Assembly (NCBI GenBank): GCA_951406725.2
Contig: OX597819.1
Location: 79,360,001 to 79,424,000, forward strand
DNA from: Octopus vulgaris
Lineage: Eukaryota
Reading direction: 5' to 3'
DNA: 64,000 bases
Position numbers and translations under genes: made by a program. Below the pieces are notes generated by a model. That model ran no database searches and had not been told where the DNA came from. It worked only from the letters and a program-made list of their open reading frames with translations. Below, one piece after another: positions 13,540-58,420 of the stretch. How positions within the stretch are numbered: position 1 is the stretch's first letter; each line of letters starts with the position of its first letter.

Positions 13540-14490
13540 GTAGAGCATTACAGGTCCGACAGCTGTTTCTGGGGCCTCGGAATTACGTCATAATTTTGGT
13601 AGATATTGTCTTAAAACGTCAAGGATATGCAACTATGAGGGATGTATATAAACATTAGATAAAACTGTCTTCAGGGTGGAGAGACTGGTATCTAACATTT
13701 CAGATCATAATGCAAGGAAATTTAAAGATAGAATGGGTGAAGAGGAAGGCCAATAGAAGTAGATGGAGGAACAGCGTAGGCGGCTCGAAGGTGTATGGGA
13801 AGTGATAGGAGATATAGTTATAGATACCTGTAAGGTATCTATAACTGTATCTCCTATCGAAGAATGAAAGTGGTTTCACGGCGGAGGGAGAGAACTGAAG
13901 TAGGTAGAAATGTATGAGAGTAAACAGAGAGGGAGAGAGGGAGTGATAGGTTGGTAGGAAAGGCAAGGGGTAGGTAATGCTAAGTGTTGTTGTTGAAGGA
14001 GAAGCTAGGAAGAGAAGGGGAAGGAATTCGAAGTATGAGAATGGTGTGACGGCAAAGGAGGATGTGCTAGGTAAGAAGAATCGAAAGACACACACACACA
14101 CACACATATATGATAGATGGGGGTATAAATAGAAGGGATATGTTGTTAATGCGGCTAAGTTGTAACTTAAATTTGTATCGTAATTAGGGAATTCTATAGA
14201 TTTTACATAATGAGCAAAAGATGAGTAGGTTTTGTGTTCACATGAAAAGATTAAATCTGAGAATCTATTAAGTAATGAGTGGTTGTGGTTGAGAAGGTTA
14301 GCGGACGATTCCCTTAAACACAGTTTACAAACCCCGAGGTTAGTTTTGTAAGGGGGACTCTCAGAGATAATGGACCAGGATAGGGTACAGGGAATGTTTT
14401 GGAACCTGAAGTCGAGTTGTTAGAGAGGTAGATAGTTAAGAAGTTCTATTGGAAAAAAGAATATGTGCTCGGTAGCGACGCTTAAAATCG
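13540..14490 (-). mobile_element. Penelope-like element 3' remnant (GIY-YIG endonuclease C-terminus, pyrimidine-rich 3' region, hammerhead)
   Basis: Minus strand 14490-14222 translates (with frameshift) to DFKRRYRAH ... WSIISESPPYKTNLGVCKLCLRES...LLNRFSDLIFSCEHK, matching the Penelope GIY-YIG C-terminal pattern W.I...Y...C.LCL.E...LLN...C.H; hammerhead-like motif downstream. Confidence 0.85.
13556..13676 (-). ncRNA. Hammerhead-like motif with ~100-nt stem II insertion
   Basis: Minus strand CC-CTGAAGA-[~98 nt]-GAAAC-AGCT-GTC-GG; palindromic stem III ACAGCTGT; lies 3' of the Penelope endonuclease remnant. Confidence 0.6.
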
Positions 14491-35570: not shown

Positions 35571-36451
35571 CAGGGTGGGTGAAAAGTAAATAGGCATTAA
35601 AAATTTGTAATAAAATCCATATTCTTTTTACAAATTTATTGAAACAGATTATACACGTTCTTTATTTCATGAGGAAATGAAAGTAAATATTCATACTTCA
35701 ACGTAAGCACCGGTGGCGGTAACCAGTTTCCTCAAATGGCCAGGGATGGAGTGAACAACTTTCTGAAAGTCGTTGTCTAGGATATCATTGAGAACCTCCT
35801 GAATCCGTGTCTCCAAGTCCTCTAGTGTGCGAGGTTTTGTCTTGTAGACCCCCTCTTTTGTGTAATCCCGCAGGTAAAAGTCATATGGAATGAGAACTGG
35901 ACTTCTTGGGGTTCTGGACTTCTGCCGTCACAGTCTTCAGGTTTTAGTTCCTGCACGTTATGTGGTTCCCACGGACGAAAATTCAGTTCTTTAGGCAACA
36001 CCATACATATTGTGTGTCTTGTTAGTTCACTTTCACAAGCTGCTTGGCGTGTTGATTTTTGCGGATTGCGATTAAACATTTCCTGCACTGTTGCCACGTT
36101 CTCCGCTGATCGGGATGTGGTTGGACGGCCACTTCTTGCATCGTTCACAGAGCCCGTGATCATCAGCCTTGCATGACAACTTTTTATTGTCTCCGGACGT
36201 AGTGTTGCATGCTTACCTTTCCATGCACGCTATCATCTCTGGACCAAAACAATGGAATTCCACACTTCACATAGCGTGCTGCTATCTTAACGCGACCCTG
36301 AACGGCCACCTGGAAAATAAGAAATAAGAAATAAAGAAAATAGAAAATTCTATTAGTATTGTCTGTTTAAAAAGTGTTTTCGTCGTGACTTCAGTGATAC
36401 TAAAAATTCTATGGGCAATTTGTAATACCTGAATACTTTCCACCCACCCTG
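35571..36451 (-). mobile_element. Internally deleted Tc1/mariner-superfamily element with both TIRs
   Basis: TA-CAGGGTGGGTGAAAAGTA ... TACTTTCCACCCACCCTG-TA; ORF 36163-35822 TGSVNDARSGRPTTSRS...QKSTRQAA...VQELKPED joined by deletion to the C-terminal region. Confidence 0.9.
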
Positions 36452-39403: not shown

Positions 39404-40062
39404 CAGGGGTGGGACAAAATAATGGAAACACCTAGTCTCATACCATATCTATGAAACCGTCAAAAACTTGTTTATTGTTATGATTTTTGATTTATTATTA
39501 GTGTTGCTTAATATGTTTTGCTAAAATTGCTGTTTCTTTTTAGTTATAATCGGAAAAAGGCAATTAAAATTCATTAAATGAGAGATCTATCAGACTTTCA
39601 AAGAGGTAAATTGTTGGTACCCGTATAGAAGGCGTTAGCGTAATGAAAACAGCCGAAATGTTTGGTGTATCAAGAAGTACTGTCTCAAAAGTAATGACAG
39701 CCTTTGAGAAAGAGGAGAAAACCTCCTCGTCGAAACAAAACTCTGGAAGAAAACCAAAACTTTCAGATAGGGGCCGACGGACTCTTACGTGAATTGTTAG
39801 AAAGAATCACAAAAGTACAGCTCCAAAAATTACTGCAGAGCTTAATGACCACCTCGAGAACTCAGTTTCCACAAAAACTGTTCGCCGGGAGCTGCACAAA
39901 GCCAGATTTCATGGAAGGGCTGCGATCAGAAAACCACTACTTCCCAAAACAAACGTTGCAAAGTATTTAGAGTGGAGGAAAAAACCTACAGAATTGGTCC
40001 CTAGAGCAGTGGAAGAATGTTATTTTCTCGGACGAGTCATCCATTACTTTATTTCCGACCTG
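39404..40062 (+). mobile_element. Tc1-like transposon, 5' part
   Basis: TA-CAGGGGTGGGACAAAATAATGGAAACACC terminus; from 39578 MRDLSDFQRG...AEMFGVSRSTVSKVM...NSGRKPKLSDR...WKNVIFSDES; ends at a SINE. Confidence 0.9.
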
Positions 40063-40075
40063 AATATTATTGAAG

Positions 40076-40202
40076 AACCACATGGTTCCACGTTCAGTCC
40101 TACTGCATGGCATCTTGAGAAAGTGTCTTCTACTATAGCCTTGGGCCAACCAAAGCCTTGTGAGTGGATTTGGTAGACGGAAACTGAATGAATCCCGTCG
40201 TG

Positions 40203-44673: not shown

Positions 44674-44875
44674 CAGCAGAGACCAGAAATTGCAAACACT
44701 GCGAACTGACACGAGAGACAGATCCGTCTTATGATATTCCCGTCATAGTTCAATGACTGGTTGTGCTATTCAGCGGTTGTCCGCATATGAAATACGAGGT
44801 GAAAACGTGAAGCAGTATGTATACATACACGTCACAAACATACACACACACACGCAAGCACATATACATACATAT

Positions 44876-44922
<47 letters not shown>

Positions 44923-45038
44923 CATATACATACATACATATATATACATACATACATACATATATATATATACATACATATACATACATACATACATATA
45001 TATATATATATACATACATACATATATATATATATACG

Positions 45039-45070
<32 letters not shown>

Positions 45071-45401
45071 TATATATACATACATATATACATACATATA
45101 TATATATATATACATACATATATATATATACATACATATATATATATACATACATATATACATATATATATATACATACATATATATATATATACATACA
45201 TATATATATACATACATATATATATACATACATATATATATACATACATACATATATAAGGCGATGGCCTCATGGAGCTAATAAGCGGACAGCTTTTTTC
45301 TTATTTTTATAAGAATGCCATATTAGTATGGCGATAACTATTATTTTCCGGGAACGCTGCCGCTGTTCTCTTTTAGAGAGACTTAGTTATTTTAATATTT
45401 C

Positions 45402-45447
45402 TATTATTGAAAACAAGTGGATGTATTCCACCGAAACTAGGTAAATA
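45402..45447 (+). ncRNA. Hammerhead-like motif 1 (U3-A8 core variant)
   Basis: TTGAAAA-CAA-GTGGA-TGTAT-TCCAC-C-GAAAC-TAG-GTA; GUA triplet at 45441-45443; weak stem I (TATT/AATA). Confidence 0.6.
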
Positions 45448-45480
45448 AAACCATCGAACAGAGATTGTCGGAAGCGACAC

Positions 45481-45551
45481 CTACTGGCTGGCTACGCTGC
45501 ATTGAAAAGGGGCAATACCCCGAAACGCGTCTGTAGCTGCCGGTCAAGTAG
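45481..45551 (+). ncRNA. Minimal type I hammerhead ribozyme 2 (U3-A8 core variant)
   Basis: Stem I GCTGCA/TGTAGC extended by CTAC-TGGCTGGC/GCCGGTCA-A-GTAG; core TTGAAAA; stem II GGGG-CAATA-CCCC; GAAA; palindromic stem III ACGCGT; GUC cleavage after 45531. Confidence 0.88.
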
Positions 45552-45761
45552 TGTGGAGCGACTGACCTCCCTTGTTCGAAGGTTATATGGATACAGTTTG
45601 TGTATCAAATAGCTAACTTAAGGCGATGGCCTCATGGAGCTAATAAGCGGACAGCTTTTTTCTTATTTTTATAAGAATGCCATATTAGTATGGCGATAAC
45701 TATTATTTTCCGGGAACGCTGCCGCTGTTCTCTTTTAGAGAGACTTAGTTATTTTAATATT

Positions 45762-45796
<35 letters not shown>

Positions 45797-45863
45797 GTAG
45801 GTCCCGGGTTGATTCGGGGTTAACCACAGTAAATAAGGTACTCAATACATAGCAGAGTAAAAT

Positions 45864-45997
45864 TAATTTATTATATAGAAGGAGCTTCTACAGGACTAGA
45901 ACTGTTTCATTCAAGAGAAATCTTCAGGAAGCTCCTGAGCTTCCTGAAGATTTCTCTTGAATGAAACAGTTCTAGTCCTGTAGAAGCTCCTTCTATA

Positions 45998-46007
<10 letters not shown>
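45864..46007. repeat. Perfect 71-bp-arm palindrome with a hammerhead-like motif on each strand
   Basis: 45864-45934 is the reverse complement of 45937-46007 (2-nt spacer CT); plus arm reads CTGAAGA-TTTC-TCTT-GAAT-GAAAC-AGTTCTA-GTC (45944-45977). Confidence 0.92.
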
Positions 46008-51699: not shown

Positions 51700-51866
51700 G
51701 ACGTGGAACAAGTATAGTATTATTGGACGCTCAGGAAGGAAGGGAAGAAGGAGGGTTTTACATTTCGAGCGGAGCTCTTCGTCAGAAACATAGGAAAAGG
51801 AAAGATCCAGCGAAGGGAAGACGGAGGAAAAAATCGCCAACGGCACACTCGCGGTCACATTTTGAA
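51700..51866 (-). mobile_element. Penelope-like terminal repeat fragment with hammerhead motif (family A, best copy)
   Basis: Minus strand TGTTT-CTGACGA-A-GAGC-TCC-GCTC-GAAATGT-(pyrimidine loop)-GCGTC-CAATA (51790-51721); bounded by (TA)n on both sides. Confidence 0.72.
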
Positions 51867-57289: not shown

Positions 57290-58420
57290 TTTTTAAGAAG
57301 TATCCTGTCCATTATATCACGGAGGTGTTCAATAGTGTTTGTATCTGGAGACTGGCTTGGCCTTGGAAGCTTTTTAATGCTATTCACATCCAAAAATTCT
57401 TGGATCATTTTAGCCATCTGACAAGGAAACCTATCTTCCATAAATAAAGTGTCCACTTCAATCGTTTCACCACTGGAGAAATTTGGAAGTAGTCCTTTCT
57501 GCAATATGGACACATATTTATCTGACTTTATGCTTCCTTCACACTGCACTAGATCTGATCAACCATTGTTCCAAATTGTTCCCCAGATCATCACAGAATA
57601 CCTGTCGTGTTTCATTGTTGGCTGCAATATTTTTACATCTAATTCTTGGACACTGAACCTCCAGACCACAGTCAGGAAATACATCAAATCTGGACTCATC
57701 AGAGAATATGACAGTGCCCCAAAATGCTAATGGCTTCTTCACCATCTCACTGGCCCAATCTTTTCTTCGCTTGATGTTGGTTGGTCGAAAAAGTAGCTTC
57801 CTTCTTGCTGCCCTGTGATAGTAAGCAAATTTGGAGAGATACCTGTCAGTTCTGGAACTGATATGAGCTTGTTCTGCTATGTCAGAAGTCTTGCATCGAG
57901 GATTATCTTCCACACTTATCTTAACAAAGAGAAGGGCCCTGTCAGAGGACCCTGGCTGATCTAGACGAGGTGATGAGGACTCCTTCCTCTCTCTGGTGAA
58001 TTGAATAATCATTCTACTAACTGTAGAAAGCGGGATCCCAAGGTTTTCTGCAATGTTACGCTGACTATGTCCAATTCAGAATGACCCAGGATACGACCTC
58101 TCTGAAATTCAGACAGTTCCAAGGCTTCTTTTGTACATGGCATGGTTAAACAGTTACATATAGAACCTGAAACAAAAATGTCAATTAATAAAAAATAATA
58201 AACATTCACAAGATAGAATAAACATATTTTATGGACTGTCTATTTACTTCTGTTGTGTGAGTATATATATATTAAAGGATCGAAAGTGGGTATTAGTATT
58301 TTTCGGCCGATAAATGATGAAGAATTACAAAATGTCCTACGTGTACGTTTTGTAGTATTTAACGCATTTTTCATTTATTGAGTAACTGAACGCCAGGCGT
58401 CCTGACTTTTGCTAACAGTA
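57290..58420 (-). mobile_element. Tc1 (DD34E-like) transposase pseudogene
   Basis: From 58143 MPCTKEALELSEFQRGRILG...AARRK...WGTVIFSDESRF...FMEDRFPC...PSQSPDTNTIEHL in broken frames; TIR-like CTGTTAGCAAAAGTCAGGACG near 58420. Confidence 0.9.

Follow-up and report, generated by a model that had tools for sequence, protein, structure and literature searches.

The analysed window, a stretch of 64,000 nucleotides from Octopus vulgaris (contig OX597819.1), contains a non-coding tandem element made of one full 362-nt unit and a partial second unit, with microsatellites on both sides (Table 1; unit positions are window positions minus 45256). The units share an exact direct repeat of 146 nt at a spacing of 362 (45257-45402 recurs at 45619-45764). 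Apart from microsatellite frames that reach its edge, the unit has no reading frame of ≥120 amino acids, and the reverse transcriptase (RT) plus GIY-YIG reading frame that is a feature of autonomous Penelope-like elements (PLEs) is absent from it. Folded as a circle, the unit reached a z-score of -6.7, with none of 60 shuffles as good, 64% paired and a GC content of 41.7%.

Table 1 Features of the tandem element and its flanks in the window.
Feature	Position	Strand	Basis or details
TA/TACA microsatellite, 5' flank, insertion target	44860..45256	.	
Full 362-nt unit, non-coding tandem element (non-LTR retrozyme)	45257..45618	+	Repeat, copies, arrays, circular fold
Short fixed 3' end of insertions	45340..45348	+	Unit 84-92, mode 88 = 45344; 84/199 arm ends
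Predicted 4-bp hairpin TTTC/GAAA	45398..45412	+	Loop 45402-45408 holds the long fixed 3' end
Motif 1, hammerhead look-alike without stem I	45402..45449	+	TTGAAAA 45407-45413, hairpin 45417-45431, GAAAC-TAG-GTA 45433-45443
Motif 2, type I hammerhead	45481..45551	+	Letters, fold, alignment, covariation
Motif 2 stem I, 6 bp, plus distal helix	45496-45501/45532-45537	+	
Motif 2 core U3-A9, TTGAAAA	45502-45508	+	
Motif 2 stem II, 4 bp	45509-45521	+	GGGG/CCCC 45509-45512/45518-45521
Motif 2 G12-A15.1	45522-45525	+	GAAAC starts at 45522
Motif 2 palindromic stem-loop III, ACGCGT	45525-45530	+	
Motif 2 GUC site	45529-45531	+	Predicted cut after C45531
Second unit, partial (positions 1-146)	45619..45764	+	Stops at the long fixed 3' end; without inverted arm in the window copy
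(CT)n(TA)n microsatellite, 3' flank	45765..45795	.	

A scan of the genome (2.8 billion bases) with the unit gave 1,089 candidate places, 40 of which were scored and yielded 129 matches, mostly 99-100% identical. The copies are spread across many chromosomes, in short head-to-tail arrays that contain up to 5-6 units and nothing between them. Motif-2 copies number at least 1,454 genome-wide, as counted with two mutually exclusive patterns (801 young and 653 intermediate), and older subfamilies add further copies (328 matches to an unrelated 18-mer). Subfamilies are 75-100% alike, and at least four share the same 360-nt plan; the unit and its subfamily variants are also present in the assembled contigs of four sequencing runs. 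Animal non-LTR retrozymes are described as non-coding tandem elements with a unit of 170-400 nt (350-390 in mussel), a GC content below 45% and one type I hammerhead per unit (PMC7229834; bioRxiv 10.64898/2026.07.22.740005). The octopus unit is such a retrozyme: it is non-coding, tandem, a few hundred bases long, dispersed and low in GC, has one type I hammerhead per unit, is predicted to form a self-paired circle and shares its genome with PLEs, as do those described in the same sources.

A sequence-only reading of this locus had proposed two hammerheads, both with a U3-A8 core and a minimal architecture. All the letters that it named are in place (both TTGAAAA cores, the stem II strands, GAAAC, GUH and ACGCGT), and motif 2 has the complete layout of a type I hammerhead, whereas motif 1 lacks stem I and covariation and has lost A15.1 in 370 genomic copies. 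Nor is motif 2 minimal, as it is full-size, with a long stem I that includes an internal loop, and a long distal helix. A strict hammerhead descriptor matched once in the window, against a mean of 0.0 in 30 shuffles, and the fold of the 78-mer around motif 2 had a z-score of -4.0 (0/200 shuffles as good). The named hammerhead fold without stem III was evaluated at -26.4 kcal/mol; the minimum-energy fold keeps its stems I and II, adds other pairs and reaches -34.6. Rfam reported no hammerhead family for either motif at E-values up to 10, so the expectation that standard searches would miss this family holds for that database; for motif 2 the variant core may be the cause, and an Rfam match does not define the fold.

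The U3-A8 pair is kept in motif 2 across the family, as had been claimed. The young pattern gave 801 matches with positions 3, 7 and 8 free and again 801 with U3 and A8 fixed, that is, U3-A8 in 801/801; this mostly reflects recent descent, and older copies therefore weigh more. Among the first 100 listed of the 653 intermediate copies, 98 have U3-A8, one has C3-A8 and one has U3-G8, with A, C or T at position 7. The oldest copies were taken from 54 loci picked by a motif outside both hammerheads, which provided 27 near-complete motif-2 copies; 26 of these have U3-A8 and the 27th is without the core. The sequence-only reading had named genomic paralogues with CUGANGA as a finding that would count against it. 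When we looked for C3 cores that share the stem III of motif 2, 20 matches came back (6 in the control), five of them in the retrozyme family and all five C3-A8, one being the product of an inversion junction; the family thus offered no CUGANGA copy and no such counter-evidence. We rejected a path from C3-G8 through C3-A8 to U3-A8 inside the retrozyme family, as C3-A8 is sporadic and the oldest copies already have U3-A8.

Comparative support for motif 2 comes from 42 hand-picked copies (alignment A1), near-identical or junction-damaged copies being left out here and in the 32-copy alignment of motif 1 (A2); about half of the aligned motif-2 copies were retrieved with patterns in which part of motif 2 was prescribed. 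The hammerhead core (U4, G5, A6, N7, A9, G12, A13, A14, A15.1-U16.1, H17 and a Watson-Crick pair at 3-8) is present, with N7 free (T in 20 copies, C in 13 and A in 9) and the other core positions conserved in 40-42 of the 42 copies. Copies with a base other than A at 15.1 number 17 genome-wide and are scattered over varied backgrounds. Pairing was kept in 91.1% of cells (stem I 98.8%, stem II 96.4%, stem III 98.8%). Two-sided changes were found in 105 cells, compared with 35 in shuffles (0/500 as high) and a maximum of 9 in slid controls; they affect four of the six proximal stem I pairs and two of the four stem II pairs; the shuffle control overstates the significance because the copies are related. 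Two of the five covariation measures were unexceptional, namely the number of pairs with a two-sided change (10 vs 7.6, reached by 44/500 shuffles) and further pair types (reached by 492/500). Judged from these copies, motif 2 is under hammerhead-like constraint. Loop 3 has GC in 21 copies, UA in 12 and AU in 8, with a single non-palindrome; such palindrome-keeping swaps fit a putative dimer cleavage of motif 2 (PMC4209133; PMC6765202), and the weak palindromic helix III resembles that of the dimer-dependent axolotl motif. In the 3' strand of stem II, C-to-T variants occur at 45519 and 45521 (unit 263 and 265) in 23 and 14 of 124 young-array unit copies, respectively, and keep the pairing as G-U.

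Motif 1 behaves differently from motif 2. It has a conserved 5-bp hairpin (GTGGA/TCCAC; 45417-45421/45427-45431) and a GUA at 45441-45443, but the pair that should close stem I (1.1-2.1) is A45406 against A45444, and the hairpin is set off from the core by three unpaired bases (CAA) on one side and one C on the other; across the alignment, two to three extra bases follow A9. The fold of its 53-mer is no better than that of shuffles (z -0.85), and the bare 7-mer TTGAAAA has 23 occurrences in the window, both strands counted. Across the 32 aligned copies there is no two-sided change and the structure is no better than shuffles, with stem I paired in 49% and the hairpin in 91.7%, the latter also without two-sided change. 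Position 15.1 is A in 15 copies, including that of the window, T in 13 and G in 4. In hammerheads, no core pair is more conserved than A15.1-U16.1, whose mutants lose at least tenfold in activity (PMC3088659). Position 7 is A in 32/32 copies, and the proposal that the two motifs share the same core holds for the window and the youngest subfamily and fails beyond it, where motif 2 varies at position 7 as given above. As identical 7-mers are confined to the youngest subfamily, they are a product of drift at position 7 and not of two independent compensations.

From these comparisons we infer that motif 1 is non-catalytic. A hammerhead ancestry is nevertheless plausible, and motif 1 may have weak activity, because G12, A13, A14, G16.2 and U16.1 are kept in 31-32 of the 32 copies, as a chance look-alike need not do, and the minimal hammerheads of PLEs can have a 2-bp stem I and a need for protein. 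The strongest rival reading builds on this and takes both motifs as working hammerheads, motif 1 being a weak, minimal, PLE-type one that cuts only as a dimer or with a PLE protein. It draws on U4, G5, A8, G12, A13 and G16.2 in 32/32 copies and a U3-A8 pairing in 30/32, on the low activity reported for PLE minimal hammerheads, whose stem I can be as short as 2 bp and which have an extra base before stem II (PMC4209133), and on the anole PLE hammerhead, which cuts only with protein (PMC11167929). We consider it improbable, given that 15.1 is G or T in 370 genomic copies, a young amplified subfamily included (among the 100 listed, nearly all belong to two uniform types, that is, whole subfamilies), that the 1.1-2.1 pair is broken in 16/32 copies, the window's among them, and that subfamilies with this pair are mostly without A15.1 or C15.2. 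The missing two-sided changes, the fixed position 7 and a loop-3 region whose palindrome is not clean speak in the same direction. A heterodimer of motifs 1 and 2 was also rejected, as ACTAGGT and ACGCGT do not pair throughout when their letters are compared. A core-like 7-mer with a hairpin is thus insufficient for a hammerhead call, and descriptor scans allowing U3-A8 would miscount motif 1.

The ends of the insertions suggest another role for motif 1. In the young subfamily, 178 of 199 arms (108 loci) stop at one of two places, unit 84-92 or unit 143-152; the second, long fixed end accounts for 94/199 arm ends, and its mode (151 = 45407) coincides with the first base of the supposed core of motif 1. 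These counts leave out overlapping duplicate and unrelated loci (24/167) and arms of <93% identity or cut by the locus edge (64/263). The short end lies 63 nt before the long end, and both read CTATTAT in the young subfamily; as TAT also matches the target, the true long end may sit a few bases earlier. Exactly one arm of each kind is present at 64/108 loci and, where listed, the two arms are inverted and joined with an overlap or gap of a few bases. The arm end is followed by (TA)n in 158/178 cases, 5' ends are scattered, and in the oldest subfamily the ends cluster near these two positions too, though more loosely. A consensus fold of 26 copies predicts the TTTC/GAAA hairpin around the long end; it uses core bases of motif 1 and is without two-sided changes.

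Two fixed 3' ends, an inverted 5'-truncated arm and a microsatellite target are features of PLE-mobilised elements, and the octopus element has them all. The tail of PLEs arises from two internal starts of reverse transcription, and in the anole PLE the RNA ~55 nt beyond the start sites is required for insertion (PMC11167929); motif 1 occupies the corresponding place. Motif 1 is therefore likely part of the signal at which a Penelope-type RT would dock and start copying. Among the 5' truncation points, those of 15/199 arms fall within unit 272-281, a span that includes the predicted cut (275/276), which is roughly threefold more than an even spread would give. We discounted this as a trace of in vivo cleavage: only two arms start exactly at 276, a larger peak at 311-323 lies beside a TTCGAA palindrome, the site itself adjoins ACGCGT, and junctions have microhomology. 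Locus-private changes were common to all units in 12/137 cases and to both arms in 10/96; there is little support for the copying of each array from one circle.

We think it quite probable that the 362-nt unit combines a U3-A8 hammerhead (motif 2), which would cut multi-unit transcripts as a dimer, with a hammerhead look-alike (motif 1) in a Penelope-type copying-start signal. In transcripts with at least two units, base pairing of the 6-nt palindrome would bring two motif-2 copies together for cleavage after GUC (45531), with U3-A8 acting as a pair-preserving version of C3-G8. The monomers may then circularise, by analogy with the retrozymes of coral, mussel and axolotl. Insertion would begin with a nick in (TA)n, made by a Neptune-type PLE protein that would also prime cDNA at unit ~88 and ~151; priming at two sites would give the long arm, the often inverted arm and the 63-nt tail. 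The window copy cannot release a monomer by itself because it has only one motif 2; it is likely one real U3-A8 hammerhead in a young retrozyme plus one look-alike at the copying start. The subfamilies form a natural series, up to ~25% apart, with stems I and II changing in a compensatory way and loop 3 taking three palindromic forms, which adds comparative support for dimer cleavage. A more far-reaching version, which we regard as rather unlikely, is a divided labour between two hammerhead-shaped modules, one catalytic and dimer-dependent, the other dead and kept as the landing site of a Penelope RT that fixes the long tail end at the first core base. If this were true, PLE proteins would recognise a hammerhead-like fold, and such recognition could be the reason for the poor or protein-assisted cutting by PLE hammerheads.

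To survey the PLEs of the genome we scored the top 150 of 6,136 candidates from a GIY-YIG search and found an intact 781-aa frame with RT plus GIY-YIG domains in many copies. We call this element Neptune-type, as suggested by the cysteine linker before the endonuclease (PMC8557442; bioRxiv 10.1101/2021.04.23.441226). Its terminal repeat contains a minimal hammerhead with a TTGATAA core and an ACATGT loop, and hammerhead motifs of this type gave 1,526 matches, with U3-A8 in 98 of the first 100 listed. This core and this loop recur in one old retrozyme subfamily; U3-A8 was therefore probably inherited from a PLE lineage that already carried it. The argument that a double change shared by two otherwise dissimilar motifs implies selection on catalysis is not supported, as motif 1 fails the comparative tests and U3-A8 appears here as a lineage trait.

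The Neptune-type element is a possible partner of the retrozyme. Its target is (TA)n, its two ends are separated by 38 nt (the long one reads CTATTAT or TTATTAT before AA), and its likeness to the retrozyme is confined to the hammerhead core, loop 3 and the CTATTAT end. The DNA of the two gave no significant alignment (best E 0.19 and 0.063), the tails differ in length (63 nt in the retrozyme vs 38 nt), and a motif-1-like hairpin is absent from the 16 bases printed behind the Neptune-type long end. Other candidates were dropped: Neptune family B gave only a weak match that lay on the wrong strand, a PLE fragment in the window leads to an old, broken family that does not resemble the unit, and a U3-A8-like match in locus L174 is the centre of an inversion. 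In several Neptune-type copies (L214:1081-4781; also L218, L221, L222 and L232), an upstream 479-aa frame without a convincing Pfam match overlaps the 781-aa RT frame, while a single ORF is described for canonical EN+ PLEs (PMC11167929; PMC8557442; bioRxiv 10.1101/2021.04.23.441226). A second Neptune-type family (L207, L223, L225 and L230) encodes a protein that is 46% identical and has, in L207, a C3-G8-type motif in the 3' region; both core types thus seem to coexist among the PLEs of this genome.

Retrozymes have been proposed to be non-autonomous derivatives of PLEs (PMC7229834; bioRxiv 10.64898/2026.07.22.740005), and the fixed ends give genomic support to the proposal that PLE enzymes move animal retrozymes. 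The unit could on these grounds be merely a truncated terminal repeat of an undiscovered autonomous PLE and not an independent retrozyme, a reading that we hold to be very improbable. Its insertion ends are PLE-like, Xenopus retrozymes resemble pLTRs (bioRxiv 10.64898/2026.07.22.740005) and our survey covers only the best-ranked GIY-YIG candidates; yet in the arrays of up to 5-6 units the end of one unit directly meets the start of the next, a match to the unit was absent from all 66 PLE-containing loci tested, and the 360-nt plan is common to at least four subfamilies. A satellite spread at the DNA level, with the hammerhead as a passenger and U3-A8 as a frozen accident, would agree with young copies so near-identical that the 801/801 reflects descent, but is scarcely credible for dispersed short arrays whose 3' ends are fixed, whose 5' ends scatter and which have inverted arms; here, pair-preserving changes build up between subfamilies while the core stays.

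The U3-A8 swap itself is already published and is not new. Perreault et al. (PMC3088659) described natural U3-A8 hammerheads in 2011 and, citing earlier work, stated that they are active in vitro, and ~1,300 minimal U3-A8 hammerheads were found with a changed descriptor in the Cercyon PLEs of Schistosoma mansoni (Cervera and de la Pena 2014, PMC4209133). Motif 2 has the same covariation at positions 3 and 8 as these. Unlike the minimal Cercyon hammerheads it is full-size, with a 6-bp stem I, an internal loop, a distal helix and a 4-bp stem II, and its setting is a non-coding tandem unit instead of a pLTR adjoining an RT frame. The U3-A8 core also sets the octopus element apart from the retrozymes of PMC7229834, a paper in which the terms U3-A8 and U3A8 do not occur. 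In contrast to the animal retrozymes described in the accessible sources, it has a second hammerhead-like module and two fixed ends with inverted arms in (TA)n, and is known from DNA alone. In Xenopus, cleavage was seen in only one of nine retrozyme dimers (Li, Clavereau and Pollet 2026, bioRxiv 10.64898/2026.07.22.740005). With canonical EN+ PLEs the element shares two fixed 3' ends, a partial tandem with an inverted 5'-truncated arm (PMC11167929; PMC8557442), AT-rich or microsatellite targets and a hammerhead upstream of the start sites, while differing from them in having no ORF and a tail of 63 nt, compared with 30-40 nt in the published accounts. We found no description of cephalopod retrozymes or of retrozyme tails in the literature, whose supplements may bear on the point. 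Similar variants may reportedly be described by Lunse et al.

Several other repeats lie in the window. Next to the element, 45796-46007 is a separate inverted insertion with perfect 71-nt arms (45864-45934 and 45937-46007) and a one-sided extension of ~68 nt into (TA)n, which looks like the tail signature of another PLE-type family. Rfam matches to miRNAs near 45892-45979 were rejected because they come from a perfect palindrome, and were below the gathering scores. A fragment at 14180-14419 (- strand), putatively from a Hydra-like PLE, belongs to an old abundant family (6,682 candidates) whose relatives have a GIY-YIG-like domain at E 0.00045, below the cut-off. Another repeat at ~51750-51785 (- strand) contains a C3-G8 minimal hammerhead-like motif (CTGACGA, a 4-bp hairpin and GAAA), and a similar one is found in L230. 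Hammerhead-like motifs also occur in a related old repeat family (L055, L060 and L062), with CTGACGA in one copy and CTGACAA in two, the latter possibly due to CpG decay of G8. Short frames at 35822-36229 (- strand), 39793-40176 (+ strand) and 57539-58075 (- strand) may be remnants of Tc1/mariner transposases, which they resemble.
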